DNA from: a virus
DNA: 64,000 nucleotides
Direction: 5' to 3' (one strand)
Virus record (IMG/VR): IMGVR_UViG_3300024054_000008
Span: 1 to 64,000 of that record
The notes below the pieces were generated by a model, which had not been told where the DNA came from, ran no database searches, and saw only the letters and a list, made by a program, of their open reading frames with translations. Shown piece by piece: positions 4,264-63,003 of this stretch. The first letter of the stretch is position 1. The number at the start of each line of letters is the position of its first letter. The translations under genes and the position numbers were made by a program.

Positions 4264-6057
4264 TCACACTGTACCAGTTAAATGCATAACCCAACGTGTT
4301 TTTCCAACGTCCCAAATTTGTTTATACCCTTGACTTTCCCTAAGTTGTTTTTCAGTAAGTTGCAAATTTAATTCTGATGATTTTTTACGCAAACCAGATT
4401 TGTGGTATCTAGCACCACCTTTTACCCAGTAATAATCTTGATTCAATTCGCCATCTTTTGTAAAACCGAGTTTTTCATACACTTTGCCAGTAAACAAACG
4501 ATTATCAGAGAATGAAACAATTGATAACGGTTTCATATCAGAAATTGAAACTTTAAACAATTTAGACATAAGGCCATTAATTCTATAACCAAGTTTACAT
4601 GACATTCTAATTAATTCATACTCATATTTTGATTGTCTTGTGGGTTTTTTGAAACTAATACATCCAACTAAAACGCCATCAAAAAAAGCGCCATAGTTAC
4701 GAGAAGTCCTGCATCCACCTATATAATGATTTTCTTCATAAAATTCATCAGCAACTGAAGAAGGAATTTTTTTAACCAAACACGAAGAAGCTCGCAATGT
4801 TATTGATTTATTTATCAGAAGACGGTTCAGAATTATAGATTTTATCTTATTTTGTGATCTTGACCATTCATCCTCAAACACCATCATGTATGAAAATCCG
4901 TTGTCTATTGCATTTTTATATTTATTAAAATCACGATGTTTAGATAGCACCAAACTATGATATTTAAGACCGTTGAATTCAATAACTAATTTAGAATCAG
5001 GGATGCAAATATCATAATTCAATTTACCAATTTTATACTCAAGAATAGACGACACTCCGTTGGAAACAAGAAACTCATGTATTCCTTTTTGTCCATTTGA
5101 TATGCGATATGTTACACACCCGCATGTCAAAGACTTACCGAGCCTAATCGAGTCCCAATTCGGTTTGTATGTTCTTTTGCATGCTGGACAAACAACACTG
5201 AATGGTTTTTTCGTTCTAGTTACAGATTCAAGCATAACAAATGGACTGTTCGGTAAATCTGATTGTGATATTGGTGGTTTTAATCTAGTGATTTCATTTT
5301 GATTTTCAAAATACCATTTCTGGATAGACTCACGACATTTGCCGCATGCGGTAGTTCTACCTCTTGTAACATTTTGTATAATAGCAGAAGTTATATTGCC
5401 ACAATCACAAATCCATTCAACTTTTTTGTTGGATCTCAAACCAATTGAACCTGGATTTAACATTCTTAACTTACCAAATTTTGACTCTTTCCAAAAATCT
5501 GATAATTTTATATCGCATTTTCCACAAGATTTAGAATGACCACGAATAACATCAGTAACAGATCGTAAAGACACACTGCCACAGTCACATATCCACTCAA
5601 CATGCTTATTTGAATATTTATGTATATCAATTGGATTCAACATTCTAAGCTTACCAAATTTTTTGTTTATCCAATCTTTAGCAAGAATTAGATTGCATTT
5701 TCCACAAGATTTGATAGACCCTGATGTTACTAATGCAATTGATACAATTGTATTCATACCACAATCACAGACCCATTCAACTTTTTTATTTGAACTACGG
5801 TTAATGCCGATCGGATTCAACATTTTCAGTTTACCGTATTTTATTGACTTAAAATGATCAGCTGTTAAGAAATTGCATTTGCCACATTTTTTTGTATGAC
5901 CATTAAAAACTTTTGCCCAAGTTTTGACTACATTTTTATTACCACAAGAACAATTAAATACAGCTGGTTTACAAGACCAACGCGGCAGTATGTCTTGTCC
6001 AGGCGCTAAAGTTAAAGTCATCAATTTAACCGTACATATCAAGTAAACCTTTACCAC
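4264..6057 (-). CDS. Free-standing endonuclease: Cys-repeat array + Vsr/DUF559-like nuclease + GNAT-like C-terminal domain (Hef-like)
   Basis: About 3.5 repeats of FGKLRMLNP...VEWICDCG...SCGKC; nuclease motif YDICIPDSKLVIEFNGLKYH...VFEDEW; C-terminal YGAFFDGVLVGCISF...YELIRM...SFSDNRLFTGKVYEKLGF. Confidence 0.75.
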   Translation of the reverse strand: MVKVYLICTVKLMTLTLAPGQDILPRWSCKPAVFNCSCGNKNVVKTWAKVFNGHTKKCGKCNFLTADHFKSIKYGKLKMLNPIGINRSSNKKVEWVCDCGMNTIVSIALVTSGSIKSCGKCNLILAKDWINKKFGKLRMLNPIDIHKYSNKHVEWICDCGSVSLRSVTDVIRGHSKSCGKCDIKLSDFWKESKFGKLRMLNPGSIGLRSNKKVEWICDCGNITSAIIQNVTRGRTTACGKCRESIQKWYFENQNEITRLKPPISQSDLPNSPFVMLESVTRTKKPFSVVCPACKRTYKPNWDSIRLGKSLTCGCVTYRISNGQKGIHEFLVSNGVSSILEYKIGKLNYDICIPDSKLVIEFNGLKYHSLVLSKHRDFNKYKNAIDNGFSYMMVFEDEWSRSQNKIKSIILNRLLINKSITLRASSCLVKKIPSSVADEFYEENHYIGGCRTSRNYGAFFDGVLVGCISFKKPTRQSKYEYELIRMSCKLGYRINGLMSKLFKVSISDMKPLSIVSFSDNRLFTGKVYEKLGFTKDGELNQDYYWVKGGARYHKSGLRKKSSELNLQLTEKQLRESQGYKQIWDVGKTRWVMHLTGTV

Positions 6058-7037: not shown

Positions 7038-7859
7038 TCATAGAGAGAAAACTGAAACACCATCATCTTGCAAAAACGCGGCTGCTACGCCAGCTGGCAA
7101 CCCAACTCTATCACCACCTGGTTGAAACGTAGCACTACGCATCTTTGAGAAAACACCATATGCGAATGACAATAAAACTGCCCCAGTTTCAACAAAACTT
7201 GGCGCTATAACTTCAGCTACCGCGTCAACAAGCGCGGCTTGCTTTGTTGCTGAAAGCAATGACCAAGATGATAAAGCAACTATAGCCGCAGTACTAACAT
7301 TAATCGTAGTTGGTGTTGGATAAACAGCCGCCTTAACAGACGCAACTGTGATACCTGTTACAGTAACGCCGCCGGCTGCAAACCCAACGGCGGTATTTAA
7401 AGTGCTTCCATTCACCACTGAATCAACTTGCAAACGTGCGCTTGGGCCAGCATTATCATCGGTTGTATCAATCTGAAGTTGATTAGTGCCGGCCACTGAT
7501 GCAACAAACGGTAGACCACGTGCAACGAATGCTGTGTTTAGGTCATCACGAATAGTGGTTTTAGGAACTGCAAGACCCTGAGTTACAGATATGACTTCAT
7601 AAGCATCAGCAGCGTTTCTGCGTATTCTCAATGTGTCATCTGGTCCAGTTATCGTGTCAACAGTTGCGGACATGTCAGTGCCACGCAATGACAGGAACGC
7701 AAATAAATTTAATGCTGATTCAATTTCAGCATCAGTTGGATACCGTAGAATTCTGCTTTGACCAGGTGGTTCCATAGAGAAACCGCGTTGAACACGACTC
7801 TCAACATCTGATGTGTAAAGACCTGGCCCAAGATCAGTTCTAACTATTCCTGCTCGCAT
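7038..7859 (-). CDS. Putative virion structural protein (paralog of 7887..8702)
   Basis: Ala/Thr/Val/Gly-rich, SD GAGG. Shares GIVRTDLG.G.Y.SDVESRVQR...PPGQSR and AVYPTPTTINVS, FVETGAVLLSF with its neighbour. Confidence 0.6.
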   Translation of the reverse strand: MRAGIVRTDLGPGLYTSDVESRVQRGFSMEPPGQSRILRYPTDAEIESALNLFAFLSLRGTDMSATVDTITGPDDTLRIRRNAADAYEVISVTQGLAVPKTTIRDDLNTAFVARGLPFVASVAGTNQLQIDTTDDNAGPSARLQVDSVVNGSTLNTAVGFAAGGVTVTGITVASVKAAVYPTPTTINVSTAAIVALSSWSLLSATKQAALVDAVAEVIAPSFVETGAVLLSFAYGVFSKMRSATFQPGGDRVGLPAGVAAAFLQDDGVSVFSL

Positions 7860-7886: not shown

Positions 7887-8702
7887 TCAAGGATAAGTGA
7901 ATGCCGTCACACCATCGTTCTCTACTATTGCGGCAGCAATTCCGGCTGCATGCCCAGCTCTTACTCCGCCAGGTCGGAATGAAGCCTGAATAAGCTCACT
8001 TAAGACACCGCTCTGAAATGAAAGTAGAACAGCGCCAGTTTCTACAAACATTGGTGCTATAACTTCAGCTATAGCAGTAACTAGATCGTCTTTTTGAGCA
8101 GTTGTCAAACTAGCAAAGGTTGATAAAGCTGTTATTGTGGCAGAGCTAACATTAATCGTAGTTGGTGTTGGATAAACAGCCGTTTGAAGAGCTGCGACAG
8201 ACAGACCATTAGCAGTAAACCCATCCGTAAATCCAACAGCAGTTGTCAAAGTGCAACCATTCGCAACCGTATCAAGCTCCAAATGAGCACTCGGTCCAGA
8301 ATTTGGTGAAATTGAATCAATTTGAAGTTGATTCGTACCAACAACTGACGCAACAAACGGGACGCCATCTGCTACAAACGCAGCATTCAGATCATTACGA
8401 ATAGTTGTTTTTGCAGTTGCTGCACCTGCTGTTACGGTTACTACATAAAATGAACCATTACCAGGGCCACGAATCCTCAACGTATTATTTACAGCTGTAT
8501 TAACTGAGGCAGCAAGATTTGCCCCTCTATGACTTAAAAATGCAAATTCATTTAGAACTGACTCAATTTCAGTGTTAGTTGGACGGCGAACATTTCGGCT
8601 CTGACCAGGCGGTTGAAGAACAAAGTTGCGCTGAACGCGGCTTTCTACATCAGAAATGTAGACTCCATCTCCTAAATCAGTTCTAACTATGCCAACGCGC
8701 AT
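7887..8702 (-). CDS. Putative virion structural protein (paralog of 7038..7859)
   Basis: Collinear similarity to 7038..7859 over the whole length; SD GGAGG. Confidence 0.6.
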   Translation of the reverse strand: MRVGIVRTDLGDGVYISDVESRVQRNFVLQPPGQSRNVRRPTNTEIESVLNEFAFLSHRGANLAASVNTAVNNTLRIRGPGNGSFYVVTVTAGAATAKTTIRNDLNAAFVADGVPFVASVVGTNQLQIDSISPNSGPSAHLELDTVANGCTLTTAVGFTDGFTANGLSVAALQTAVYPTPTTINVSSATITALSTFASLTTAQKDDLVTAIAEVIAPMFVETGAVLLSFQSGVLSELIQASFRPGGVRAGHAAGIAAAIVENDGVTAFTYP

Positions 8703-9985: not shown

Positions 9986-11851
9986 CTATTTTAACTGCTT
10001 TGCAAAAACTGATTTACTAAATTCTTCAACTTTAAAAATATTAATTTTTTTAGCAAATTCACCCTCTTTCATTTTGAGTTTTTTAGCCATGTCCCATATT
10101 GTTTTTTTGTGTATTAAACGACCTGTTGAAACATCAACATAATGATAAGAATTACCGGTGTTATTCAATTTTTTCCAATTATCAGCTTTATATATAGTAC
10201 CAACATCACAAACAGTTGAATCAGAAAAACTTAATATAAGATTTATATTTGGCACATCAGATTTTAGCATTTTAGAAAATTGTTTTAAACAAAAGGTCGC
10301 AAGATTACCGCAAGACACATTTGGTCTAATGCAAAATCTTTTAAGTTCACGAATTGAATGTGATGTATATTTAGTATTAAATGCATTGTTTATTTTTTTG
10401 ATTGAATTATCACGGGTAACACCGCCATACACGCATACACATATTAATTTGTCATCATAATACGCACCATATATTATTGACGAATTTGTAAACCCTCCTA
10501 GATAATGATAGCTTGCAAGAAATTCAGACGCCAACTCACAATTAATTTTTGAAAATTTAATTTCGTCTAGATTTATTATTTCAATTTTTGGTTCTGTAAT
10601 TTTGTAAATATGATAATCTAATATTTTGTGAAGTCTGCCAATATGTAATTCATGCTCCCAAATCCATATCAACTTATGTGTTGTGTATTTTTCAATGTAT
10701 GTTGATTTGCCTCTATCTCTAGCGGTCCCGGAGTAACCATTGTCTTTAAAATTATGAAAATAGTCACCTTGGCATTCGATTAGCAAATTTGCTGAAGGAA
10801 TAAAAAAATCAAAAGAATAATTTTTAATCATAAATTCTCTAACAAATTCTATTTTATATCTATTTTTCAAAATTTTTTCAATTAATTGATTAGTAAATGG
10901 ATCTGACATTCTTTCAACAACTTCGGGAATTAGATTTACAGCATCAACACCGTATTTATTAATCAGTGAATGTTTGAGTTTTTCTCCCCTACAATTTGAA
11001 CAAGAAACTACCCCATTTGATTTCACAAATGACCTAAATTGGATGTTGACATCAGTCTTACAAAAATAACAATTTGCAACCACAATTGATTTTGATGATG
11101 AAGTTAAATTACTTGGGTCATATTTAAATTTGTCAATAGTATTATTTATCACACTTTTATTTAACCAACGATTCAATGATTTAAAGTTGGCGTAATAGTC
11201 ATACGGATTAGAGTTATCGTTACTTTTTAAGTATGAATAGTAAACCGGTTTGCATAACTTACAATGTAATATATTAGTTCTACATTTAATAAATGAATTG
11301 TATTTTAATTCAAAATGTGAGCCACAAAATCCGCATTTTGCTATTACAGGCTTTAATGAATTCAACGGCATGTAATATGGGTCATAACCATATGTTTGCT
11401 TTGTAGATTCGACATCTATAAGATCAAATCGAATCTTAGATTTAACATGTAGGAAAAACTCTCTTTCCGAAGAAAAAGAATCAGACAACAAAAAATTGTT
11501 ATAAATTGACTCACAATGTTTACATGAATTAGTTGATTTATGATATAGTGCATCAGACCTAATATTAAACTCGCGTAAACAAAATTTACATCTGTAAGTA
11601 TAAAATCCATTAGATTTAGAGGTTATATTTACTTCGTGATTTTTCAATTTTTCAATATGACTAACATAAAAATCGTGTTTTGATGAATCAGATTTTAATC
11701 TTGTAAAGGCACTTGATAAACCATTACACGACTTACAGTGCAATGGTTTATCAAGTGCCTTTACATCTCTTTCAAAATTGTTTAAGCAGAATTCACATTT
11801 AACCAGTTTTTTCCGACTTGACTTTGTTGTCGTATGTTGCCGCACTTTCAT
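9986..11851 (-). CDS. Zn-ribbon repeats + Vsr/DUF559-like nuclease + Mom-like GNAT domain fusion
   Basis: Multiple CxxC pairs; FDFFIPSANLLIECQGDYFH...WIWEHE; C-terminal FLASYHYLGG...RELKRFCIRP...SFSDSTVCDVGTIYKADNW. Confidence 0.75.
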   Translation of the reverse strand: MKVRQHTTTKSSRKKLVKCEFCLNNFERDVKALDKPLHCKSCNGLSSAFTRLKSDSSKHDFYVSHIEKLKNHEVNITSKSNGFYTYRCKFCLREFNIRSDALYHKSTNSCKHCESIYNNFLLSDSFSSEREFFLHVKSKIRFDLIDVESTKQTYGYDPYYMPLNSLKPVIAKCGFCGSHFELKYNSFIKCRTNILHCKLCKPVYYSYLKSNDNSNPYDYYANFKSLNRWLNKSVINNTIDKFKYDPSNLTSSSKSIVVANCYFCKTDVNIQFRSFVKSNGVVSCSNCRGEKLKHSLINKYGVDAVNLIPEVVERMSDPFTNQLIEKILKNRYKIEFVREFMIKNYSFDFFIPSANLLIECQGDYFHNFKDNGYSGTARDRGKSTYIEKYTTHKLIWIWEHELHIGRLHKILDYHIYKITEPKIEIINLDEIKFSKINCELASEFLASYHYLGGFTNSSIIYGAYYDDKLICVCVYGGVTRDNSIKKINNAFNTKYTSHSIRELKRFCIRPNVSCGNLATFCLKQFSKMLKSDVPNINLILSFSDSTVCDVGTIYKADNWKKLNNTGNSYHYVDVSTGRLIHKKTIWDMAKKLKMKEGEFAKKINIFKVEEFSKSVFAKQLK

Positions 11852-14894: not shown

Positions 14895-15428
14895 TTAAGG
14901 AGCAGACGTTATAACTTCTGATTCTGGCATTTCTTTTTCAGAACCTTTAAATGAATTTATAAATTTGTCTATTTGCCTCTTAAGCAATTTTAACTTAGAC
15001 TCAAGGTTTTCTTCATTATTAGTCTCTTTACGAGCATCGTCCCATTTCAGAACAGTTCTTTCACCTTCATCAAGATCCCATAAACCAAGCTCCTCAGCTT
15101 CTTGAGCAATTCGAATCATTACAGAAGCTATACGTTTGCATATATCATCAACTGCTATCTTCTTTATAGTTGTACTATCATAATTTTGGTTATTAAACCC
15201 ATCCAAAGACTTAATTATATGATCAAATTGATCATCAACAGACACATCAACAGAAATTTTGGCAGGAATGTTTGGTCCAATCCTCCTAGAAGAAGCAGTT
15301 CTAGAAAGAAGACTTAATAACACCAATTTCAGATCATTGACTACTAAATCTTGATTTGGATGTTTTGATATTTCTAATTTTGACGCAATTAACCTAAGAC
15401 GTTCCGATATTTGATTAGGAGTTTCCAT
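14895..15428 (-). CDS. Hypothetical protein carrying an RxIAS...P..LV..D module (putative virion/head protein)
   Basis: N-terminal SERLRLIASKLEISKHPNQDLVVNDLKLVLLSL resembles the duplicated module in 18210..18950. Confidence 0.55.
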   Translation of the reverse strand: METPNQISERLRLIASKLEISKHPNQDLVVNDLKLVLLSLLSRTASSRRIGPNIPAKISVDVSVDDQFDHIIKSLDGFNNQNYDSTTIKKIAVDDICKRIASVMIRIAQEAEELGLWDLDEGERTVLKWDDARKETNNEENLESKLKLLKRQIDKFINSFKGSEKEMPESEVITSAP

Positions 15429-15482
15429 TAGTTATAACCATCAATCAAAGTTTCAGTATAAATGTCAATGTAGTATATTTAT

Positions 15483-17459
15483 ATGACAAATAAAAATAAA
15501 TTAATATTAATAACTATAGTTTCTCTTGCAATTTATTTGTTTTTGCCGATTTTGGCAAAATTTATTTTGATTAAAAAATTGGATAGCATTGAGATACCAT
15601 CAGACGTAGAATCGGTCAACTTAACATGGTTTGGAATAAATGCAAAAAATGTTCGTTCAAAAATTTGTAACAACAAAATATATACAAATTTTGAGAACAT
15701 ATCAGTCAAAATTGGGTTAGACTTAGAAATAAAACATATAAGATTAGAAAATGGTTCTATAGACATAAAGTCTATAGAATGTGTAGACAAAAAGACCTAT
15801 GCAAAATCAAAAAGAAGAAACACCAAATTTGAATTGGTAGATTCTTCAGTAAATTTGAGTGGCAATCTACCAAATACAACATTAGAAGGTGTTAATATAA
15901 ATAAAACAGACAATAAAACAGAATTTAATATAGAAAGCGTAGACATCAAATGGAAAGCAAACATAAAGTTAAAGAACGTTCATATTCTGAAATTAGATGA
16001 TAACATACAAATAAACAGCAAAGAATTAATGGTTAATAAACTAACCACTACTCTAACCACCACTAAAACAAATGAACAATCAAATGAATTTGATAAAATT
16101 TGGAATTATGTAGACAAAACATTTCCAATAGAATCGAAATTATCAGACACAAAATATACGGTAAAATTTGAATCAGAAAATACAAAAATAAATGATAATG
16201 AATTCAGCTTGGAATTCAATTTACGAAAAAACAATATTGAATTTAAAATAACAACAAACAACAAACAACAAATAAATGCAAATATCGTTTATGAAAAAAA
16301 GAATGACACGTTAAACTATGATTTAAATTTAGACGTTAAAAACATCAACGTAAATAATAAATTGATTTCAGATGAAAATGTGATTTTGAATTTACAAACA
16401 AATTTGAAAGGAAAACTAGAAAAAAATGCGTTAATAGGAACTGGCATATTCAATGTTTCTGACACATATACGACTATGTCATATAAATTAAAACGTGAGA
16501 CAGATCAATCAATAATTGAACTTGAAGCATCGTTGCAAGATTCACCGTGCCAAAAAGTAATAAATTCAATACCAAGCGGTATGAAAGGGAAACTAGAAAA
16601 AATAGAAGTTGAAGGAACATTCGGATTCGATACAAGCATAAAATACTATAGTAAGAACAAAGAAAAATCGGACGCGAAATTAAATATAAAAATGAAATGC
16701 AAGAAATGGTCTGTACCAAATGAAATGAACGTTAAAAATTTCAAAAAACCATTTGAACATATTGTATATGATATAAATAAAAATCAAAAATCAACAAAGT
16801 TAGGCCCAGGAACAAAAGATTGGTTTCCGATTGGTGCAATGTCGAGGTTTATAACATTATCAATAACAACAACAGAAGACCCGGGTTATGGAAAACATGC
16901 TGGCGTTATACCAAAAGCATTAGAAAATTCTCTTATAGAAAACTTGAAATCTGGCAGATTTGTAAGAGGTGGCAGCACAATACCGATGCAGCTCGCCAAA
17001 AATTTGTGGTTAGGCAGAAAGAAGAATATAGCCAGAAAAATTCAAGAGTTGTTTTTATCATCTTATTTAGTTGAATCAATAACTCAAGAAGAACTATTAG
17101 AACTATATCTAAACATTATTGAATACGGGCCGAATGTATATGGTATAAAACCAGCATCAGAATATTATTTTGACAAAAACCCGTCAAACTTATCATTGAG
17201 CCAATCATTGTTTATAGCATCAATACTACCAAACCCAAACAAACAAAGATTTGACTCAGACGGAAAATTAAATCAAGGAGCGCTGTTGTGGATAAAAAGA
17301 GTCATGAAGTCAATGTTAGATAACAATAAAATATCAGAAATTGAATATGAAAGAGGAATGCAAGAATGGCCAAAATTTAAAAAATCCGATTCATCTTCAG
17401 AAAGCCAAAAATTCTCTGATGAAGAGTTAAAAATAATCAAAGAATTGGAAACACACTAA
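15483..17459 (+). CDS. Membrane-anchored peptidoglycan glycosyltransferase (GT51, monofunctional MtgA-like domain) with large N-terminal region
   Basis: N-terminal TM helix; GT51 motifs TEDPGYGKHAG, RGGSTIPMQLAKNL, RKIQE, LELYLNIIEYG, SLFIASILPNP. No transpeptidase domain. Confidence 0.88.
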   Translation: MTNKNKLILITIVSLAIYLFLPILAKFILIKKLDSIEIPSDVESVNLTWFGINAKNVRSKICNNKIYTNFENISVKIGLDLEIKHIRLENGSIDIKSIECVDKKTYAKSKRRNTKFELVDSSVNLSGNLPNTTLEGVNINKTDNKTEFNIESVDIKWKANIKLKNVHILKLDDNIQINSKELMVNKLTTTLTTTKTNEQSNEFDKIWNYVDKTFPIESKLSDTKYTVKFESENTKINDNEFSLEFNLRKNNIEFKITTNNKQQINANIVYEKKNDTLNYDLNLDVKNINVNNKLISDENVILNLQTNLKGKLEKNALIGTGIFNVSDTYTTMSYKLKRETDQSIIELEASLQDSPCQKVINSIPSGMKGKLEKIEVEGTFGFDTSIKYYSKNKEKSDAKLNIKMKCKKWSVPNEMNVKNFKKPFEHIVYDINKNQKSTKLGPGTKDWFPIGAMSRFITLSITTTEDPGYGKHAGVIPKALENSLIENLKSGRFVRGGSTIPMQLAKNLWLGRKKNIARKIQELFLSSYLVESITQEELLELYLNIIEYGPNVYGIKPASEYYFDKNPSNLSLSQSLFIASILPNPNKQRFDSDGKLNQGALLWIKRVMKSMLDNNKISEIEYERGMQEWPKFKKSDSSSESQKFSDEELKIIKELETH

Positions 17460-17872
17460 TCAGCTCCGATTTCCGATTTAATTTTATTACAAAATGCAGC
17501 CGGGTCACCAACATCCGGCATGTCATCTTTAACTTTTTTCATACACTTTGTCATAGTTTCTCCAACTGATTCCCAAAATTTTCTCTTTGATTTTTCAGTC
17601 CAATCTTCTAAACCTTTAGCATATCTCATTGAAGAAAACCTGAACAAAGCACGCTTAGCAATATCAGATAAAGGAAATTTTGGCGCACCATAAGAAGACA
17701 CAGAAGCAATTTTCGGGCACGGGCATGAACACTCAGGACCACAAGTACAATATCCGCCATTTTCGCAAGCACACCCAGTTGCACAGTGTCCAACACATTC
17801 TTTAGAAATTTGTTTTTTAGTAAATTTGTAAACTGCATTTAAAGCGGTATTGTTAGACATGATAATCTCCAC
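17456..17872 (-). CDS. Small protein with metallothionein-like Cys cluster
   Basis: CVGHCATGCACENGGYCTCGPECSCPC: 9 Cys + 1 His in 27 aa. Confidence 0.55.
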   Translation of the reverse strand: MEIIMSNNTALNAVYKFTKKQISKECVGHCATGCACENGGYCTCGPECSCPCPKIASVSSYGAPKFPLSDIAKRALFRFSSMRYAKGLEDWTEKSKRKFWESVGETMTKCMKKVKDDMPDVGDPAAFCNKIKSEIGAD

Positions 17873-18209
17873 GACACAAACAACATTAGAAAGTCAAACA
17901 TCAGATACATTTATCATGGATAATCAATATGGATTATCAGATATAACATATGGAAATACGAATGTATTTGGAAATACAAATGTGATTAATATAACAGGAC
18001 AAAGTGTAACAAACCAAAATCAAATTTGGTGGATACCAAATGATAACTCAGTCAACGTCAACGAACCATCATTAATATATGGGTCCAACTTCGATATCAA
18101 AGAAATATTAAAAGCATATATGAAACAAGCGATACAACAATCAATGGACCCTGGTGACATCAGAAAAATGTTGGATGAAATTATTACAGAAGAAGTCGTA
18201 GATAGTTAA
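17850..18209 (+). CDS. Hypothetical protein with C-terminal ITEEVVDS tag (start uncertain)
   Basis: ORF ends LDEIITEEVVDS*, nearly identical to the end of 25181..25489; the 5' end overlaps the divergent gene, so the real start may be later. Confidence 0.5.
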   Translation: MLDMIISTTQTTLESQTSDTFIMDNQYGLSDITYGNTNVFGNTNVINITGQSVTNQNQIWWIPNDNSVNVNEPSLIYGSNFDIKEILKAYMKQAIQQSMDPGDIRKMLDEIITEEVVDS

Positions 18210-18950
18210 TTAGCTTTCAAGAACTGAAAGCAACTGTTTAATATCTTTAGCAACCAAAGCCGGGTCTGGTTTTTTAGAAGCTTCAATACCAGAAGCTATC
18301 TTACGAAGAGCTTCAACCGTATCTTTTGGAGAAAGTTCTTTTTTCTTCGGTTCTGGATTTAAGCTAGAAATGACATTTTTAATATCTTTAGCAACCAAAG
18401 CCGGGTCTGGATTTTTAGAGTTATCTATGCCAGATGCAATTCGACGAAGAGTTTCAGCTATATCTTTCGGAGTCGGTTTTGTCATATTAATATTTTTTAT
18501 TGAAATTCTAGCAGCTATTCTAGGTATTAAATTTCTGGCCAATAAATATAATTCATTAAGGTTGAGAGCATTGTTGACAGCTGATTCTATTGCGCCTGTT
18601 TCAGTTCCGGGCATGATATCTGATTCATCAGCTTCATCGGCAGTTGGAACAAATTCATGTTTGTGAGTTAACCCAAGCAAATTTTTCTTTAAATTCAAGA
18701 CTAACGGCTTTGAATCAAATGATTTTGGATTAAGCAATTCTCTAGCAATCTGGTCAGCTATATTCGTGTCAATTATTGATTCAATTTCAGAATCACTAAT
18801 GTTAGATTCAATATTGACTCTTCTAAATTCTTTGATTAAATCATCCCAATATTTATCAAGTGATTCGTAAATTCTATTTTCAACCAAATGAGTTCCATAA
18901 GTTTTATACAAAGCATCCATCATCTCATGAGAGATACTAGAAAGTCTCAT
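18210..18950 (-). CDS. Hypothetical protein with duplicated C-terminal ~40-aa module
   Basis: ETLRRIASGIDNSKNPDPALVAKDIK and EALRKIASGIEASKKPDPALVAKDIK; exact 33-nt DNA repeat at 18237-18269 and 18378-18410. Confidence 0.65.
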   Translation of the reverse strand: MRLSSISHEMMDALYKTYGTHLVENRIYESLDKYWDDLIKEFRRVNIESNISDSEIESIIDTNIADQIARELLNPKSFDSKPLVLNLKKNLLGLTHKHEFVPTADEADESDIMPGTETGAIESAVNNALNLNELYLLARNLIPRIAARISIKNINMTKPTPKDIAETLRRIASGIDNSKNPDPALVAKDIKNVISSLNPEPKKKELSPKDTVEALRKIASGIEASKKPDPALVAKDIKQLLSVLES

Positions 18951-18973
18951 AATAAATAATAACAAAAGAAGGT

Positions 18974-19243
18974 CTAATCAATAATTAAATTTAATACATT
19001 CAGTTCATTTTTTAGTTTAAAATTCTTGCCAAAATTAATTTCAAACACCAAAGTTTCACTATTAAAAAATAATGGCACAGAGAACCCGCTTGGATAGTAT
19101 TTGTGCAAATAGGATGCAACACCAATAAGATTATCTTGGACATTAAGGTATTTATCTCCATCGAAATTATCGTGGTAAGCGAATACAAATACGCCATCAC
19201 CAAGTTTAAATGAATTAGTTATGACTATTGGTTTCGGCGCCAT
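18974..19243 (-). CDS. Hypothetical protein
   Basis: 89-aa ATG-initiated ORF filling the gap. Confidence 0.45.
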   Translation of the reverse strand: MAPKPIVITNSFKLGDGVFVFAYHDNFDGDKYLNVQDNLIGVASYLHKYYPSGFSVPLFFNSETLVFEINFGKNFKLKNELNVLNLIID

Positions 19244-19307
19244 ACTAGTACTACGTAAAAACTAATATTATTTACAGTGAGTGAGGTTTTATTGAAATAC
19301 ATATAGT

Positions 19308-19526
19308 ATGGATTTATTGTTAATAGCATCAAAAATAACTTGGATGGAATTGTCACAAATTGAACCAAAAAAAACTCAAGAATATACAACAGAAATTGAA
19401 AACCTGGCTAAGAGTATAAATTCATTCACAAGATATTATCAAATCAACAATGTAGGAGGTCCACAAAAAATGCTGAAAATGATGGACGACATAGACAAAA
19501 TTTCAAAAGAATTAAAAGCCGCATAA
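19308..19526 (+). CDS. Small hypothetical protein (N-terminal LIASKI motif)
   Basis: 72-aa ORF preceding the collagen gene. Confidence 0.45.
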   Translation: MDLLLIASKITWMELSQIEPKKTQEYTTEIENLAKSINSFTRYYQINNVGGPQKMLKMMDDIDKISKELKAA

Positions 19527-19549
19527 TTTAATATAAGGTATTGTCCATC

Positions 19550-22468
19550 ATGGCTGTTACGGTTGGAGTTCAAAAGGTTGCTTCAGAACAAGCAGATGTT
19601 GTTCAAGCAGTCGTGTTATTAAATTCAGATATTGAACTAAAAAATCCGTTATTGTCATTATCTGAACAAGAAAATTTAAACAAAATTTTCACAGCACTTG
19701 GCATAAATTCATCAACGCATGATTTAGCTCAAGTTTCATTAAATACAGTACAGGTCCCATTCTATAACCACTTCACATACAATTTCTCAGTACGTTTCAT
19801 AAAGAAAAACACACCAAATGTAAATCTTCAATTCCAAGGACCGCCTGGTATACAAGGAAAACAAGGAAAACAAGGTGTGCCAGGAAATCCTGGTGGTCCA
19901 CCAGGACCACCAGGAGCAACAGGACCAAAAGGACAAACTGGACCTACTGGGCCACAAGGGGCGACCGGTCTTCAAGGCGCTACCGGCATAACTGGTGCTA
20001 CTGGTCCACAAGGTGTAACCGGACCAAAAGGTGCTACTGGACCACAAGGAGCTACAGGTGTACAAGGACCAACTGGAGTTACTGGTCCAACTGGTGCACA
20101 AGGAGCGACTGGACCGTCTGTAACAGGACCGCAAGGTGCTACAGGTGTACAAGGGCCAACCGGCCCGACAGGACCACAAGGTCAAACTGGTCCGGCAATT
20201 ACTGGGCCACAAGGTGCTACAGGTGTACAAGGTCCAACCGGACCAACTGGTTCACAAGGAGCGACTGGTCCAGTAGTAACTGGTCCACAAGGTGCGACCG
20301 GGTTACAAGGAGAGACTGGTGCAACTGGTCCTACTGGCCAACAAGGTGCAACTGGCCAACAAGGTGCAACTGGCCAACAAGGTGCAACTGGTGCAACTGG
20401 TCCTACTGGTCCGCAAGGTGAGACAGGTCCAGTTGTAACCGGGCCACAAGGTGCCACCGGGCCACAAGGTGCCACAGGTGTACAAGGGCCAACTGGTTCA
20501 CAAGGTGAGACTGGGCCAGTAGTAACTGGGCCACAAGGTCCAACAGGCGTACAGGGGCCAACAGGCGCTACCGGTCCTACTGGGCCACAAGGTGCTACTG
20601 GTCCAGTTGTAACAGGTCAACAAGGTGCTACCGGCGTACAGGGCATACAAGGTTCACCAGGTGTAACCGGAGCAACAGGACCGACTGGAGCACAAGGAGC
20701 AACAGGAGCGCAGGGACCAACAGGTCAAAATGGTCCTACTGGGCCGCAGGGTGCTACTGGTCCAGCTGTTACTGGACCACAGGGGGCAACCGGAGAACAA
20801 GGTGTTCAAGGTTCACCAGGTGTTACTGGTGCAACAGGTGCGACTGGGCCGCAGGGTGCTACTGGACAAGGCGCAACTGGTGCACAAGGACCAACTGGTG
20901 CACAGGGTGAAACTGGACCAGTAGTAACTGGTCCGCAGGGTGCTACTGGTCCACAAGGATCAACTGGGGCTATTGGATCTACCGGTGCTACTGGGCCACA
21001 AGGAGCTACTGGGCCGCAGGGTGCTACTGGGCCGCAGGGTGCTACTGGATTACAAGGACCAACGGGTGTACAAGGAGAGACCGGACCGCAGGGTGCAACC
21101 GGGCCGCAGGGGGCCACTGGCATACAAGGAGCTACTGGACCGCAGGGTGCTACTGGACCGCAGGGTGCTACTGGACCGCAGGGTGCTACTGGACCGCAGG
21201 GTGCTACTGGGCCACAAGGAGCAACTGGGGCAACCGGACCAACTGGTGCACAAGGAGAGACTGGTCCATCTGTAACCGGGCCGCAGGGTGCTACTGGATT
21301 ACAAGGGCCTACTGGTGCACAAGGAGCTACTGGTGCACAAGGAGCTACTGGACCACAAGGAGCAACTGGTCTACAAGGTGCTACCGGCGTACAGGGTGTT
21401 ACTGGTGCAACCGGACCACAAGGCGAAACCGGGCCGCAGGGAGCTACTGGACCACAAGGAGCCACAGGCATCCAAGGACCTACTGGGCCGCAGGGCGCTA
21501 CTGGGCCGCAGGGCGCTACTGGTCAACAAGGTGCTACTGGATTACAAGGGTCGACCGGAGCGACTGGGCCGACTGGACCACAAGGCGAGACCGGACCGCA
21601 GGGTGCTACTGGACAAATTGGTCCTCAAGGATCGCCAGGTGTTACTGGGGCAACTGGTCCAACAGGTGCAACTGGGCCACAAGGCGAAACCGGACCGCAA
21701 GGTGCAACTGGGCCACAAGGCATACAAGGATCGCCAGGTGTTACTGGGTCTACTGGACCGCAGGGTGCTACTGGACCGCAGGGTGCTACTGGACAAATTG
21801 GTCCGCAAGGATCGCCAGGGGTCACCGGAGCGACCGGACCACAAGGCGAAACCGGTCCGCAGGGTGCTACCGGACCACAAGGAGCCACAGGCATCCAAGG
21901 ACCAACTGGTCCTGGCAGTGGCGGTGGTGACGCAGCTTCCGTTACAGCAAATGATACAGCACCAACATTTGGATTTTCATATGTACAAGGTGCAATAGAC
22001 AAAATAAAAAATGTGCTCAATCCTGGTGTAACAGGGCCAGCTGGTGTAACTGGAACAGTTGTGCATACAATATCAAAAGTTCAACATGTTGTTGGGGTTG
22101 CTGGTAAACAATCATCAAACGCAACAGGGTTTGCATCTGTTGGTGCTATAAATTTTGATCCGCGTGATTACAGACCGGCGGTTCCAACCGCATCACAACA
22201 TATTAGATTTGCGGCTGTTATAGAATCGTCAGCAGGTCTTACTGGTACAGCTAGATTGTACGATCTAGCCGTTGGTACATATGTACCAAATTCGATACTT
22301 GCAACAGTTAATAGTACACCAACTTTATTGCGTTCTCCAGATCTTGGTTTGTCACAATTAGATAAAACATATGAAATACAAGTAAGCCTCGGAAGTTCAG
22401 CGACTGGGCCGACTGGATCTGATTCGGTTATTGTGAAATTGGCCAGGATTGAAATTCATCATGAATAA
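19550..22468 (+). CDS. Collagen-like protein: N-terminal domain, ~690-aa G-X-Y region, ~185-aa C-terminal globular domain; probable fibre
   Basis: G-P-Q/G-A-T/G-P-T triplets from ~19838 to ~21915. ATG 19550 is preferred over TTG 19541 by spacing to the AAGGT SD. Confidence 0.9.
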
Positions 22469-22507
22469 TTGCGGTAAATACTAATTAGCTTAATGTAATA
22501 TCGGTAA

Positions 22508-23929
22508 ATGAAAATATGGAATGTAAGACTTGGATTTGCTACAAATTCTAGCTCTTCTCACTCGTTGATTTTTCTAAAAAATATAAAAGATGATATCGAT
22601 GATAAAAACTATTTTGGATGGGAATGTTTTACAGCGGCAAGCAAAGAATTAAAACAAAATTATTTAGCTGCAACACTATACAGCAACCTTGCACACGTTT
22701 CTGATAAAAACACGGCAATTAATATAGTAAAAGAATGGTGTGCAATTAATGAAACAGAACGAGAGTTAGCAATAACTGAAGAAATTGTTGATAATGATAC
22801 TAAAGAATTCGATATAACTATAGACCATCAATCAATTTATTCTTTACCATTAAATTGGGAAGAATCATCAATAGATGAAAATTTTTTCAAAGATTTCAAA
22901 GATTTTTTATTGCAAGATGAACTTGTAATTTTAGGCGGAAACGATAATGGGGATGAACACCCTTTAAGCAATGGATCATTCAAATTAAATTTGGAAAAAG
23001 ATGTTAAACCAAGTTCGGTGGCAAAAAAGGATGACAACTTTTGGACTATCTTCAACAGAAGAAATGGAGCAAAAGTTAGACTTTCATTCGAAAAACCGGA
23101 GCAGAAACTAGAAAAACCAATCAAATCATCAACACCCGAATTAATAGACATTAAAATTACAGATTATTGCCCATTTAATTGCGAATATTGTTATCAGGGA
23201 TCAACAATAAAAGGGAGACATGCAGATCTGAACAACATTCAAAAAATCGTTGATGCAGCTGCTAATATGAAAGTATTTGAAGTAGCACTTGGTGGCGGTG
23301 AAACAACTCTGCATCCAGAATTTTTAACTATCCTTCAAATGTTTAAAAAGAAAAACGTTATACCAAATTTCACAACAAAATCATTAAAATGGTTAAAGTC
23401 TGAGAACGCAGACGAAATATTAAAAACATGTGGTTCGTTTGCATTTTCTGTTGAATGTATTAATGATATAAACGAATTATCGAAATACGAATTCGGATAT
23501 GGTTCGGAAAAACCATCTATTCAATATGTAATGGGGTCTACTGATATTGAAACATTCAAAAAAATTCTTGATATAACGGCAAAATCTGGGCATAAAATAA
23601 CACTCCTAGGATATAAACAAACAGGAAGGGGGCATAACTTTAAGCCATTCAATTATTCTAATTGGTTTGAGATTGTAAAAGAAAAAACAGAATCAGAATA
23701 CATTAGAATTGCGATTGACACGGCGTTAGCATCAGAATCAATTCACACACTTCAAGAAGAAGTATACGAATTTTCGTATTTTACAGATGAAGGTAAATTC
23801 TCCATGTACATCGATGCTGTTGAAAACAAAATTGGGCCGTCATCATATTGTGAACAATTGAAAATGAAAAAATTAAATAAAGACGAAAATTTCACTGCTC
23901 AAATTCTCAATCATTATTCAAAATGGTAA
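22508..23929 (+). CDS. Radical SAM protein fused to an N-terminal TNSSS-motif domain
   Basis: CPFNCEYC (CxxxCxxC), ALGGGETTLHP, NFTT; N-terminus RLGFATNSSSSHS. Confidence 0.85.
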   Translation: MKIWNVRLGFATNSSSSHSLIFLKNIKDDIDDKNYFGWECFTAASKELKQNYLAATLYSNLAHVSDKNTAINIVKEWCAINETERELAITEEIVDNDTKEFDITIDHQSIYSLPLNWEESSIDENFFKDFKDFLLQDELVILGGNDNGDEHPLSNGSFKLNLEKDVKPSSVAKKDDNFWTIFNRRNGAKVRLSFEKPEQKLEKPIKSSTPELIDIKITDYCPFNCEYCYQGSTIKGRHADLNNIQKIVDAAANMKVFEVALGGGETTLHPEFLTILQMFKKKNVIPNFTTKSLKWLKSENADEILKTCGSFAFSVECINDINELSKYEFGYGSEKPSIQYVMGSTDIETFKKILDITAKSGHKITLLGYKQTGRGHNFKPFNYSNWFEIVKEKTESEYIRIAIDTALASESIHTLQEEVYEFSYFTDEGKFSMYIDAVENKIGPSSYCEQLKMKKLNKDENFTAQILNHYSKW

Positions 23930-23930
23930 T

Positions 23931-24362: not shown

Positions 24363-24377
24363 GTTTAAAATTTACAT

Positions 24378-25157: not shown

Positions 25158-25180
25158 ACCAAACAAATTCAAAAATAGAT

Positions 25181-25489: not shown

Positions 25490-25518
25490 ATAAGATTTTA
25501 CATTTGTAATGTGTTAAT

Positions 25519-27972: not shown

Positions 27973-27980
27973 TATTTAAT

Positions 27981-28738: not shown

Positions 28739-28743
28739 TAAAT

Positions 28744-29019: not shown

Positions 29020-29074
29020 AGTCTACTCCAAGCTATTCCTACATGTTTAATTTTATAAATGCTTGGAAATTAAA

Positions 29075-52480: not shown

Positions 52481-54415
52481 TCAACGTCTCCTATTTTGGA
52501 TAGGAACGATTCTATTTTTGTCTGGCAACCCGTGCATTCTAGTTCTAATTCTTTGATAGTGTTTATAACTTCTGATCGGTGAAACATTCTGACCGCCTTG
52601 AGACGCAATATAATTTTCGTCAGTTAAAACATCTGGATGATCCTTTACAAATTCAGCCGCCAACAAAATGCTTCTAGCTAACGCATCAGACATATCATCG
52701 TGCTTACCTGAAACATCAGGTGCTGCTACTGTCATTATATTTTTTTCTGATGCGGTTGATTGTAGTTCTAATAATTCTTGTATCAGTGGCGAATGACGAA
52801 TCATACCACTATCATCTAATAATATCTCAGGTACTGGATAATCATATAGTCTAAGTTGTTGACTATACATAAACATCTTGAATGTTTGATACATTTGAGA
52901 CGATCCAACTTTAAAAAAATTTCTCATTTCAAATTGTGTTAAACCGCGTTTGTGTAATTCATTTTCGAAAACTATTCCGACCCATTGGTCAAACAATCCT
53001 TTTTGTATATAAAATCTTTTCGATAATGCTAATATCCAGTCCGATATTTGTTCTAGATCCAATCTTTTAATATCGTGTAAAATCTTCGCGTATGGAACTA
53101 TTGGTTCTGACAAATGGGGGTTGACTTCTTCCCATCTTTTTCCGGCATACCAAACTTCATGATATGCAAGTTCAATTTTACCTTTATTTATATGAGTTAA
53201 AGCAACTGCGGAACCGTCTTCTACGAGACCAAGATCGAACCCAAAAAAATACGGTTTTCTTGGAGAACCGCGAAATGCTGGTTTTAAATCAACATCAACA
53301 CAATTTGTCAAATCTGTTGCATTCTCTATCCAACCACGAACACGATCAGAGAATTGAGCACCAAACTCAGTCCAAAATTTATTTGGATCTTTATGATATT
53401 CTGTTTCGTAGTATTCAGTAGATATAGTTGGGTTTATTTCCCACGTTGGAGCTTGTAGCATAAGCATATTTTTTGAAGCCGCAGAATTTTCAAGCGACAT
53501 TTGATATAACTTAAAAAAGAATCCAGATTTAGCATTTGGGGACGAAATTGATATAACGCGACCATCTGATGGTCCGATTGGCACATGTTTATTGTTAATA
53601 TCTTTAGGAGAAAAAGCAGCAGTGCTTGGTGTTATAGCATTGTAAACTTTATCGGCTGACGTGCCACCCTCTTCCACGAAGTGTGCTAATTCGTCCAAAA
53701 TCAGAAGTATTGTACCACGACCACGAAGCCCTTTAGCAACAGAACTTTTGAAGGTTGCTTTAATGGTTGCTTTGCCACGACCGAAAACTACTCTATCATT
53801 TTCAGTTTGGAACCTCATATATGTTTGTGTATTGTTAAAAAGTGATTTTTTGAAAAAATCAACTCTTTCAACATGACCTTTCATATCATTGAAAACAATT
53901 GACGCTTGATCTTTATCATTTGCTATGCAAAACAACTGAATTTCTGAATTTGGTGGTATACCATAAAAACCTTGCGGGTTTCCTCTTGCTATCAATTTAT
54001 ACAGTTCATACGCAGCAAACAAAGCAACTAAAGTACTCTTTGAACCTCTTCGACCAATAACTAATATTAATTCACGTCTGTCTTTTCCGTCTTGTTCTTT
54101 TATGTTGCAACGGCCTTGATCATACAAGTACTTTAAATATTCAGTCTCAGTGAAAGAGTATAAGACTTTAGTATTAAATTTATCAGTTACATTTATGGTT
54201 TTTTCTTTATAATCTAATGGAATGTTATAATATAACTTAACTATGAATTTTTGTGCTGGATATAAACCATATGGCAATAATTGAAATCTGTCAATAAAAT
54301 CTAATACTGATAAAAACTCAGATTTATCTGTATCATAGTCAACACGTTTATCATCTAAAAATTTATTAACCGCACCAAGCAGTTGACTCTGAAAAGTCCG
54401 TTCTACACTAGGCAT
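52481..54415 (-). CDS. terL: Terminase large subunit
   Basis: Walker A VIGRRGSKS, Walker B LLILDE, coupling motif ISSP, nuclease motifs FFGFDLG and KHDDMSDA. Confidence 0.93.
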   Translation of the reverse strand: MPSVERTFQSQLLGAVNKFLDDKRVDYDTDKSEFLSVLDFIDRFQLLPYGLYPAQKFIVKLYYNIPLDYKEKTINVTDKFNTKVLYSFTETEYLKYLYDQGRCNIKEQDGKDRRELILVIGRRGSKSTLVALFAAYELYKLIARGNPQGFYGIPPNSEIQLFCIANDKDQASIVFNDMKGHVERVDFFKKSLFNNTQTYMRFQTENDRVVFGRGKATIKATFKSSVAKGLRGRGTILLILDELAHFVEEGGTSADKVYNAITPSTAAFSPKDINNKHVPIGPSDGRVISISSPNAKSGFFFKLYQMSLENSAASKNMLMLQAPTWEINPTISTEYYETEYHKDPNKFWTEFGAQFSDRVRGWIENATDLTNCVDVDLKPAFRGSPRKPYFFGFDLGLVEDGSAVALTHINKGKIELAYHEVWYAGKRWEEVNPHLSEPIVPYAKILHDIKRLDLEQISDWILALSKRFYIQKGLFDQWVGIVFENELHKRGLTQFEMRNFFKVGSSQMYQTFKMFMYSQQLRLYDYPVPEILLDDSGMIRHSPLIQELLELQSTASEKNIMTVAAPDVSGKHDDMSDALARSILLAAEFVKDHPDVLTDENYIASQGGQNVSPIRSYKHYQRIRTRMHGLPDKNRIVPIQNRRR

Positions 54416-61143: not shown

Positions 61144-63003
61144 TCAATCACGAGTCAACACAAACTTTGTTTTTGATTTGCCAAACACCTTCATATACCC
61201 AAATTGATTAACATAATCGGATTCTGATTTTCCCATCTTTTGAGCATGATCATACAATGTTTTTTTATGTATAACAAATCCTTCTTGACTAATATAGTGA
61301 TAATCAGGTTTTGTAACATGTAGCTGTTTCCAATTTGAAGCTTTATAGATTGTACCAAAATGACCAAAGGTTGAATCTGCAAAACTGACAAGAACCAATA
61401 ATTTAGAATTTTCAGAAAATATTAGTTTAGAACACCGCGATATGAACCAAGACGCAAAATTCTTTTTTTGATATTGAGGGTGTATACAAAATCTATCCAA
61501 TTCCAACATTTGACTGAAAGCATAATTCATTGAAGTCGCTACTTCTTTTCTAACCGGTGATGCAAATTTACAAACTCCAATCAATTTTTCATCAAGAAAA
61601 GCCCCATACACAACTTTAGCTGTTCTACCATATCCAGCATAATGGAATGACTGCAAAAATTCTTCAGGAGCAGAATAATAAGAATTGGGTTCTAATTTTT
61701 TCGGATTTAATTTATTAATTCGAACCTGATCAAAAGAAAAGTCACACTGTTCAATCTGGGAGCTGTTATCAAACAATTCTTTGGTTAATTTTTGTTTGAT
61801 TAGGCCAGGATTTAAAAAATCACGCTCCCACAAATACAAAATACGATAATCAGGAAAATATTTGTCTATATATGAAAATTTTGATGCATCATCCGATTTT
61901 CGTATAGAATGCCAATACTCACCATTACATTCTACCAATAAATTATGATCAGGAACATAAAGATCAAACTCAAAATAACCAATAACATGATGTCTAACAA
62001 ATTTAATATCAAGTGATTCTAATAATTGTTGAGCAACTCTTTCAAGGATACTATCTTTACCATTGAATAAAATTGATGAACGTGCTTTCGCCATCTTTTC
62101 TTTAAAAACGGGGTCACTCCACCTACTCTTAAAAAACTCAGATACTCTAATTTTGTGTTTTGGATCTGAATAGGTTTCCTTGATTTTAGCAGTTATATCA
62201 GAACGAATCTTTTGATTTTTCCATTGATTCTTGGCATTTTCTGATTTGAGAATACATAAATTCTTATCAGAAGCCGCCTTTAGTTGTTTTTCTATGTATA
62301 TCGGATCTTTCCACAATTTTTTTACATTATCTGACACCAATTTTCTTAATTCAACATTAGACCAAACCAATTTTTGCGATTTAATAATCAAATTTCTATA
62401 TTCTAAATTTTTCCAACGCTCAATGGCTAAATCAGATTGCAAATATCTATATTCACTAGTGGATTTAAATAATCTTTGTTTTTCAACATATTCTTCATTT
62501 TTGTGTAATTTACGGATCTTTTCACGTTGAAGTTCTACATTTTTTGGATCAGACCAATATTTAACGTATTTATTTCTATATATTGGATCTTTCCATAGAT
62601 TAGAAGTCGTTATTGATGCTTGTCGTCTTTTACTTGTATCTTTCCAAACTTCACTCAAAGTTGTCCTGAGTTTTTGGACCGATTCTGGGTTTGACCATCG
62701 TTCTTTTGAAATTTCAGACTGTTTCTTTCTTTTGTCGTCAGACCAAGATTTAATAATTCCGTGTTTATGTCTTTCTTGATAAATTTTATCAGTGTGCTTT
62801 GATTTTATCCCACAGGATAAACACCTATAATGTCCAACTCTCTTAATAGTTCTTAAGATTGAGGAAATCTTTAATTTTAATTTGGTTCCACAAGAACATC
62901 TTATTACTATTTGGGATTTTCTAGATATTTTGATTATATCAGTTAAAGAATCAATATCAACAATATGCGCTGGTATGCCAATCTGTTCTAATTGTTGCAA
63001 CAT
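61144..63003 (-). CDS. Helical W-x-D/N-P repeats (NUMOD3-like) + Vsr/DUF559-like nuclease + Mom-like GNAT domain fusion
   Basis: About 12 short repeats (WSNP, WKDP, WSDP...); FDLYVPDHNLLVECNGEYWH...LWERDF; LELDRFCIHPQYQKKNFASWF...SFADSTFGHFGTIYKASNW. Confidence 0.8.
   Translation of the reverse strand: MLQQLEQIGIPAHIVDIDSLTDIIKISRKSQIVIRCSCGTKLKLKISSILRTIKRVGHYRCLSCGIKSKHTDKIYQERHKHGIIKSWSDDKRKKQSEISKERWSNPESVQKLRTTLSEVWKDTSKRRQASITTSNLWKDPIYRNKYVKYWSDPKNVELQREKIRKLHKNEEYVEKQRLFKSTSEYRYLQSDLAIERWKNLEYRNLIIKSQKLVWSNVELRKLVSDNVKKLWKDPIYIEKQLKAASDKNLCILKSENAKNQWKNQKIRSDITAKIKETYSDPKHKIRVSEFFKSRWSDPVFKEKMAKARSSILFNGKDSILERVAQQLLESLDIKFVRHHVIGYFEFDLYVPDHNLLVECNGEYWHSIRKSDDASKFSYIDKYFPDYRILYLWERDFLNPGLIKQKLTKELFDNSSQIEQCDFSFDQVRINKLNPKKLEPNSYYSAPEEFLQSFHYAGYGRTAKVVYGAFLDEKLIGVCKFASPVRKEVATSMNYAFSQMLELDRFCIHPQYQKKNFASWFISRCSKLIFSENSKLLVLVSFADSTFGHFGTIYKASNWKQLHVTKPDYHYISQEGFVIHKKTLYDHAQKMGKSESDYVNQFGYMKVFGKSKTKFVLTRD

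Follow-up and report, generated by a model that had tools for sequence, protein, structure and literature searches.

The first 64 kb of the virus record IMGVR_UViG_3300024054_000008 encode five proteins in which a Vsr-like nuclease is followed by a C-terminal GNAT domain, in four of them of the type found in Mom of phage Mu. This stretch of 64,000 nucleotides is referred to as the window, and the full record is 182,739 bp long. A whole-record search brings the nuclease-Mom family to seven members, five of them in the window. The genes are probably selfish, free-standing homing endonuclease genes of the EDxHD (Vsr-like, Hef-like) family that occupy intergenic slots in the virion region. Their identity as homing endonucleases is well supported by sequence comparison.

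The family is made up of two subfamilies. Subfamily A is composed of the genes at 4264, 41485, and C1:95386-97332, which possess DUF4379 zinc-ribbon repeats and an MTES_1575-like core. Subfamily B is composed of the genes at 9986, 32904, 61144, and C1:90424-91863, which possess a DUF559/Vsr-like core. The five open reading frames (ORFs) of the window are mutually paralogous and share a common order: variable repeats of DNA-binding type, the Vsr-like (EDxHD) nuclease, and the C-terminal GNAT domain. The N-terminal array is modular and differs between copies, being built from zinc ribbons or helical repeats. A preliminary description of the window had reported a five-member family. All five of its ORFs are present as intact minus-strand frames, and the count of five holds for the window, with seven members in two subfamilies in the full record. 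The members and their domains are as follows, in window coordinates except for copies 6 and 7.

4264 to 6057, minus strand: copy 1 (subfamily A), 597 residues from a GTG at 6057, with four to five DUF4379 treble-clef zinc-ribbon repeats, an EDxHD nuclease, and a Mom domain
4813 to 5100, minus strand: copy 1 nuclease core, about residues 320-415, with Pfam REase_MTES_1575 at residues 325-412
4276 to 4779, minus strand: copy 1 Mom domain, residues 427-594, PF25680 at 23.7 bits (28.7 summed in frame)
9986 to 11851, minus strand: copy 2 (subfamily B), 621 residues, with Cys-rich zinc-ribbon modules, a DUF559-like nuclease, and a Mom domain
10607 to 10879, minus strand: copy 2 nuclease core, about residues 325-415, a weak DUF559 match with the D, E, H, D columns invariant in the paralog alignment
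10034 to 10561, minus strand: copy 2 Mom domain, PF25680 at 79.9 to 82.6 bits
32904 to 34511, minus strand: copy 3 (subfamily B), 535 residues, with three zinc-ribbon-plus-helix modules, an EDxHD nuclease, and a Mom domain
33522 to 33818, minus strand: copy 3 nuclease core, residues 232-330, DUF559 at 21.4 bits (cut-off 20.6)
32907 to 33422, minus strand: copy 3 Mom domain, residues 364-535, with a two-helix insert at residues 497-518, PF25680 at 85.7 bits
41485 to 43008, minus strand: copy 4 (subfamily A), 507 residues, with three DUF4379 zinc-ribbon repeats, an EDxHD nuclease, and a degenerate GNAT domain
41953 to 42228, minus strand: copy 4 nuclease core, residues 261-352, with REase_MTES_1575 at residues 264-349 and D, E, N, H, D kept
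41491 to 41940, minus strand: copy 4 GNAT-fold domain, residues 357-506, catalytically degenerate, with no PF25680 match
61144 to 63003, minus strand: copy 5 (subfamily B), 619 residues, with one zinc ribbon, about 12 helical W-x-[DN]-P repeats, an EDxHD nuclease, and a Mom domain
61759 to 62061, minus strand: copy 5 nuclease core, about residues 315-415, DUF559 at residues 331-394, 16.4 bits
61204 to 61665, minus strand: copy 5 Mom domain, PF25680 at 83.9 to 87.5 bits
about C1:90424-91863, minus strand: copy 6 (subfamily B), beyond the window
about C1:95386-97332, plus strand: copy 7 (subfamily A), beyond the window

The N-terminal region is of DNA-binding type. Pfam identifies the DUF4379 treble-clef repeats of copies 1 and 4, and structural models contain three modules in copy 3 and three repeats in copy 4. 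The start of copy 1 has alternatives. Its GTG at 6057 and the stop of the gene before it share a 7-nt overlap, an ATG at residue 13 is possible, and the public gene call, P0125, is 497 residues long and begins within a zinc-ribbon repeat. The longer frame is favored over P0125 because an intact zinc-ribbon repeat lies upstream (residues 36-61). In PHROGs, all five window ORFs match families 559 and/or 3339 over their full length, both annotated as HNH or homing endonuclease, and all five also match the Mom-like family 1384.

The nuclease core is related to the EDxHD enzymes. Residues of this family are E170, D196, N208, H213, and D222, together with an acidic residue at the position of Vsr F62, and Hef-type phage homing endonucleases have been placed in it (Taylor et al. 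2011). A profile of subfamily B built from 114 homologs matches the sequence of the I-Bth0305I structure (3r3p) with an E-value of 1e-13 and 54 bits, and copy 3 as a single sequence matches it at 4e-3. An ortholog in locus L001 has a Vsr match of 24.7 bits; subfamily A matches REase_MTES_1575 below the cut-off of that family. In copy 1, D349, E360, N362, H367, and D376 are conserved across 120 homologs, and the conserved residues of copy 3 are E237, D263, E274, Q276, H281, and D290. The D, E, N/Q, H, and D residues are kept in all five window copies, and the EDxHD positions are conserved at 96-100% in the 114 subfamily-B and 120 subfamily-A homologs. The core motif of the preliminary description was present but one residue short, and its second half is correctly written [IV]E-x-[NQ]-G-x-x-[YW]-H.

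The distribution of the genes among related phages fits the cycle of gain, decay, and loss of homing endonuclease genes. Slots were compared between the record, including the window, and the whole records of two complete relatives, G001 and G005. Copies were counted in five complete relatives that have terminal repeats and a capsid protein 86-93% identical. The counts are 0, 0, 6, 1 (plus a relic), and 13, and neither subfamily is represented in the complete genomes G001 and G002. Three of the seven slots of the record (two within the window) are empty in relatives, where they span 21-176 bp. The genes flanking copy 2 lie 72 bp apart in G001, the slot of copy 4 is 85 bp in G001 and 90 bp in G005, and the slot of copy 7 is 21 bp and 176 bp in the two relatives. 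For copies 5 and 6, G005 holds an ortholog of each in the corresponding slot and with the same orientation (51% and 42% identity, respectively), and G001 has none. A relative of copy 1 with 49% identity occupies the same slot in G005 in inverted orientation, and a copy-2-like gene in G005 is displaced by one gene and also inverted. A homing unit was one half of the explanation first offered for these genes, and this precise presence and absence supports it well.

Decayed copies are also observed. A 122-residue frame at G004:C1:358931-359224 joins a subfamily-A zinc-ribbon fragment (query residues 124-182) to the last 40 residues of Mom, and is an internally deleted nuclease-Mom relic. Internal stop codons are found in 4 of about 27 copies seen in relatives. 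An alternative genetic code is an unlikely source of these stops: TAG and TGA are mixed, only those 4 copies are affected, and most copies are open under table 11. At the capsid-side slot, a Vsr-Mom gene is present in 9 of 50 related loci with enough flank. Mapped on the capsid tree, its presence requires 7 changes, compared with 8.2 +/- 0.8 in shuffles, which is near random scatter. The guanine-plus-cytosine (GC) fraction of the five window genes is 0.285-0.327, against 0.35-0.49 in their flanks. Rfam and transfer RNA (tRNA) scans of the window gave no match, and the absence of an Rfam match rules out intron-encoded copies with a recognizable group I intron there.

The reading frames are tightly packed, with overlaps of 4-53 nt with their neighbors. 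Such packing, together with the same-slot, same-orientation orthologs of copies 5 and 6, would suit former homing genes that have been domesticated, are now immobile, and serve the phage in competitor exclusion, host shut-off, or DNA processing. Domestication is nonetheless very unlikely, as most slots are empty in relatives, copies in G005 are inverted or displaced by one gene, presence on the capsid tree is scattered, and relics and stop-containing copies exist.

Copy 3 lies directly downstream of the major capsid gene, in a slot spanning window positions 32589-34747. The position just 3' of this gene is a homing endonuclease hotspot that holds a Vsr-Mom gene, a LAGLIDADG gene that in many cases is joined to an amino-methyltransferase, short relics, or nothing. 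In about half of related loci, the slot holds another gene cluster. Ten of the 16 long members of this cluster are LAGLIDADG_2 endonucleases, and many other members are short relics. Six members possess a C-terminal amino-methyltransferase that matches PF03602 and PF01555, with motif I as DPFLGWG and, some 70 residues further on, SPP[FY] or DPPF. At least one protein, of 771 residues, has both the LAGLIDADG and the amino-methyltransferase domains (L038:7394-9709). Example loci of the cluster are:

L038:7394-9709
L071:3878-6397
L054:9165-11480
L023:8950-10614

Fusion to a DNA base modifier therefore also occurs, in this phage clade, in a second homing nuclease family that is unrelated to the first, a convergent design. 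A literature search found no paper on a LAGLIDADG-methyltransferase fusion. The record itself has one LAGLIDADG-like stretch akin to the capsid-slot cluster of relatives, at G000:C1:156650-157186, beyond the window.

The C-terminal domain is related to Mu Mom. The Pfam gathering cut-off of the Mom family, PF25680, is 27.1 bits. Copies 2, 3, and 5 score 79.9, 85.7, and 83.9 bits, copy 1 is marginal (23.7 bits, or 28.7 summed in frame), and a Pfam scan of copy 4 gave no match. The EL-x-R, SF[AS]D, and GTIYKAxNW motifs noted earlier in copies 2, 3, and 5 are found in all three. The AlphaFold model of copy 3 has a predicted local distance difference test (pLDDT) score of 92.6. In Foldseek, the top PDB match of its C-terminal domain is Mu Mom, 8bv8 (E-value 9e-11, template modeling score 0.63-0.66 on the target), which beats ordinary GNATs by five to six orders of magnitude in E-value. 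Helices at residues 497-518 of the model lie between the last strands, where Mu Mom has a helix-turn-helix (HTH)-like insertion. Deletion of this insertion abolishes Mu Mom activity (Silva et al. 2026). Pfam and Foldseek thus bear out the proposed pairing of a Vsr/DUF559 nuclease with a Mom-like GNAT, with the exception of copy 4, whose domain models as a GNAT fold and is degenerate.

Mu Mom transfers glycine from Gly-tRNA(Gly) to the N6 of adenine (Silva et al. 2026). Residues R111, S124, and R151 are essential, H58, Y59, W48, Y159, and W181 are important, and D149 is implicated by earlier work cited in the same study. Mu Mom residues were mapped onto the fusions through a HMMER alignment to 8bv8. 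In subfamily B, the equivalents of H58, Y59, R111, D149, and Y159 are present in 114 of 114 homologs and that of S124 in 108. Threonine occupies the R151 position in 105 of these (92%), and an invariant, family-specific histidine lies three residues downstream. Of 120 subfamily-A sequences, 101 have all seven residues; S124 is kept in 86% and each of the others in at least 98%. Copy 1 has H, Y, R, S, D, R, and Y at the seven positions, identical to Mu Mom; copy 7 also keeps all seven, and copy 3 keeps six, with Thr at R151. The Mu dimerization residue W48 maps to a variable part of the profile alignment and is not conserved. The pooled set of 234 homologs has an overall identity of 32-63%, and near-invariance at this divergence argues that the domain is under selection as an enzyme and is not a leftover. 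Six of the seven copies probably have an active Mom domain. For subfamily B activity is not assured, since R151A Mu Mom is inactive (Silva et al. 2026).

Copy 4 is a nuclease with a degenerate modifier. It is 36-39% identical to copy 1 over its full length. Its seven Mom positions are C, Y, S, E, D, R, and F, so that only the equivalents of Y59, D149, and R151 remain and four are lost. The AlphaFold model has the GNAT fold and is missing the Mom helical insertion. In a structural search with this domain, generic GNATs match about as well, and Mom is at rank 5. The nuclease residues are intact beside this degenerate GNAT, the sole such case in 120 subfamily-A sequences. Having lost Mom function, copy 4 is probably decaying or protected by a difference in its target site. 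It shows that an apparently active nuclease may persist without a working modifier, at least temporarily.

The GNAT fold that copy 4 retains without four of the seven residues would be expected if the Mom-like domain were not an enzyme at all, serving as a DNA-binding, base-flipping, or dimerization module that helps a nicking Vsr-type domain make a double-strand break. Mu Mom forms a tight dimer that has a DNA-binding cleft, and it is modeled as flipping the target adenine (Silva et al. 2026), and cleavage by I-Bth0305I needs oligomerization (Taylor et al. 2011). A purely structural role is nevertheless improbable in view of the seven residues being almost invariant in the 234 homologs, with several lost only in copy 4, and of the variable position of the Mu dimer residue W48.

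Mu Mom protects DNA from restriction. A phage-level restriction-modification weapon has been predicted for the Mom-restriction endonuclease (REase) fusions of jumbo phages (Iyer et al. 2021, Viruses 13:63, PMC7824862). The preliminary description had likewise suggested that each protein could modify resident DNA and cut unmodified DNA, a plausible cut-and-protect reading that this earlier prediction anticipates. Under this explanation the whole genome would be momylated and so shielded from host restriction and from the fused nuclease, the nuclease would attack DNA belonging to the host or to unrelated superinfecting phages, and the genes would be kept for the benefit of the phage. The strong conservation of residues that match Mu Mom agrees with it, and multiple paralogs could span several specificities. 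Such a cut-and-protect system would always pair its nuclease with a functional modifier and would be retained across the lineage as protection. Copy 4 lacks that pairing, copy number ranges from 0 to 13, and the two complete close relatives without a copy, G001 and G002, make a genome-wide protective role unlikely. Single-gene insertions and deletions, relics, and internal stops are the pattern of a selfish element, the long modular arrays suggest rare, long targets and not genome-wide action, and the nuclease is homologous to characterized homing enzymes. A phage-level weapon is therefore an unlikely explanation of these genes.

Under the preferred reading, as selfish homing endonuclease genes, the nuclease would act during co-infection. 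By inference from I-Bth0305I and Hef, it would cut the gene-less allele of a related phage beside the empty slot, and recombinational repair from the gene-carrying genome would then copy the gene in. Each Mom match in these genomes sits in an open frame of 485-659 residues, and no free-standing Mom gene was seen in the record and the relatives searched. Since Mom is seen only fused to the nuclease, the shared N-terminal array should bring it to the same DNA sites. The most economical function of the domain would be to make the resident genome immune to the nuclease of the same element. As a tentative proposal, Mom, tethered to the same array, might add an aminoacyl or acyl group to adenine N6 in the resident genome, at the cognate site or close to it. 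A charged tRNA would be the donor, as for Mu Mom, and the mark would make the element inherently immune to its own nuclease, much like a single-chain (Type IIG-like) restriction-modification enzyme.

Several points weigh against this reading. The proposed mechanism rests on homology. The intact nuclease of copy 4 beside a dead GNAT means that self-immunity through Mom cannot be obligatory. A single chain that cut a site and also protected it would need a kinetic rule to avoid self-cleavage after replication. With the Thr-for-R151 substitution and the invariant His of subfamily B, its chemistry or donor may differ from that of Mu Mom. Finally, no co-conversion signal was found beside the capsid slot: near the 3' end of the capsid gene, gene-carrying loci are no more alike than gene-less loci, at about 80% DNA identity, a level at which the result is not evidence against homing either.

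A broader proposal covers both fusion types of the clade and is possible, though on the doubtful side. EDxHD-Mom and LAGLIDADG-methyltransferase proteins would both be self-immunizing homing elements that mark their own target and cut unmarked rivals. The modifier would be guided by the same DNA-reading array, which would allow the element to keep an intact target and still cut unmarked rivals. "Self" would then be the element, and not the phage or the host, and the element would be a mobile, single-chain restriction-modification unit. The Thr-for-R151 and His signature of subfamily B might mean another acyl donor or product, and the substrate might be 2-aminoadenine.

Beyond the window, a PurZ-like adenylosuccinate-synthetase homolog at G000:C1:89232-90431, plus strand (also L121:5233-6432), converges on copy 6, with an ORF overlap of 11 nt. 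Its best NCBIfam match is PurZ, at 179.9 bits (cut-off 300), rather than PurA. The gene is conserved in G001 (65% identity) and G005 (57%) and thus belongs to the core, which the Mom fusions do not. Should 2-aminoadenine be used in the genome, the substrate base of Mom would differ from that of Mu.

Homing endonucleases are thought to spare their own genome through a disrupted or sequence-divergent target. If the immunity proposal is true, chemical marking of the element's own site would be a third way to self-sparing, one that ties selfish homing genes to restriction-modification systems. Hundreds of metagenomic homologs make this a large family. How the parent enzyme Mom works chemically has been known since 2026, so the question is directly testable with cloned genes; a literature search found no experimental test of a nuclease-fused Mom domain. 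A 2021 publication had already presented the architecture, its occurrence in several copies per jumbo phage, and the idea of restriction combined with momylation. The result for the window is mainly annotation, namely five further members of a described family, one with a dead modifier. The specifics added are copy numbers that range from 0 to 13, empty slots that close cleanly, a copy whose modifier is dead, and Thr in place of R151 as a signature of subfamily B.

The source record has a CheckV completeness of 43%. Complete related records with terminal repeats are 362-436 kb long, so the record is a fragment of an uncultured huge phage. When 20 kb of the window were compared with GenBank phages by megablast, there were zero matches, and hence no close cultured relative. 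The window also encodes collagen-like tail fibers, RtcB, and a radical-SAM protein. Its GC-rich stretches at 1-4000 and 20001-24000 were considered as ribosomal RNA or foreign DNA, and this was rejected, as they are collagen-like tail-fiber genes. An 18-kb region, 14895-32588, has almost no synteny with G001 or G005. Homologs of its genes, where present, are dispersed elsewhere in G001, and the region appears to be an accessory or rearranged island within the virion module. Two adjacent genes at 7038-7859 (273 residues) and 7887-8702 (271 residues) have one counterpart gene in G001 and G005, and by this comparison look like a tandem duplication particular to this phage. Other features of the window are:

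19541 to 22468: collagen-like fiber gene, GC 0.46, inside 14895-32588
22508 to 23929: radical-SAM gene, inside 14895-32588
25519 to 26559: epimerase-like gene, inside 14895-32588
30592 to 31803: RtcB, inside 14895-32588
34748 to 35635: major head (capsid) protein gene
52481 to 54415: large terminase gene

Hef-like homing endonucleases have been known since 2005, when Hef of the T-even phage U5 was described. Copy 1 aligns over 94% of its length with annotated members from Campylobacter phages, which have 10-11 copies per genome, and from Acj9. The enzymes compared are those of Campylobacter CP220, CPX, and NCTC12673, Acinetobacter Acj9, and Dickeya LIMEstone (F-LimIII, VII, VIII, and X), and the alignment with copy 1 includes the Mom-like C-terminus. 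As here, they are free-standing, occur in several copies per genome, and adjoin conserved virion or replication genes; in LIMEstone1, the Hef-like genes are listed as free-standing homing endonucleases beside virion genes. Identity is only about 25-28%, the N-terminal arrays differ, and the phage here is uncultured and huge.

I-Bth0305I (3r3p) is the prototype of the EDxHD family. It has a homologous nuclease core, the same active-site residues, and a bipartite layout with an N-terminal DNA-binding region. It differs in being intron-encoded, in possessing NUMOD/HTH motifs, and in ending after the nuclease with no Mom domain, whereas the copies here are free-standing and have zinc ribbons or helical repeats and a C-terminal Mom domain.

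Mu Mom (8bv8; PF25680) shares with the fusions the residues H58, Y59, R111, S124, D149, and Y159, R151 as well in subfamily A, and the two-helix insert. Mu Mom is a stand-alone, 231-residue late-gene product of a temperate phage, whereas the domain is seen here only fused to a nuclease. Subfamily B further differs from it by Thr at R151 and the invariant His, and W48 is not conserved.

Type IIG/IIL enzymes, e.g., MmeI, combine a nuclease, a base modifier, and a shared recognition part in one polypeptide and offer an analogy for the coupling. Their modifier is an S-adenosylmethionine-dependent methyltransferase and they are cellular defense genes, whereas the modifier here would be an unrelated GNAT of tRNA- or acyl-dependent type.

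The closest parallel in architecture, multiplicity, and restriction-plus-protection logic is the group 2 jumbo-phage Mom-REase fusions, e.g., the five momylating enzymes of PA5oct (Iyer et al. 2021). Those fusions are framed as phage defense or counter-defense, whereas the comparative evidence here points to selfish mobile genes that may be missing from entire genomes.

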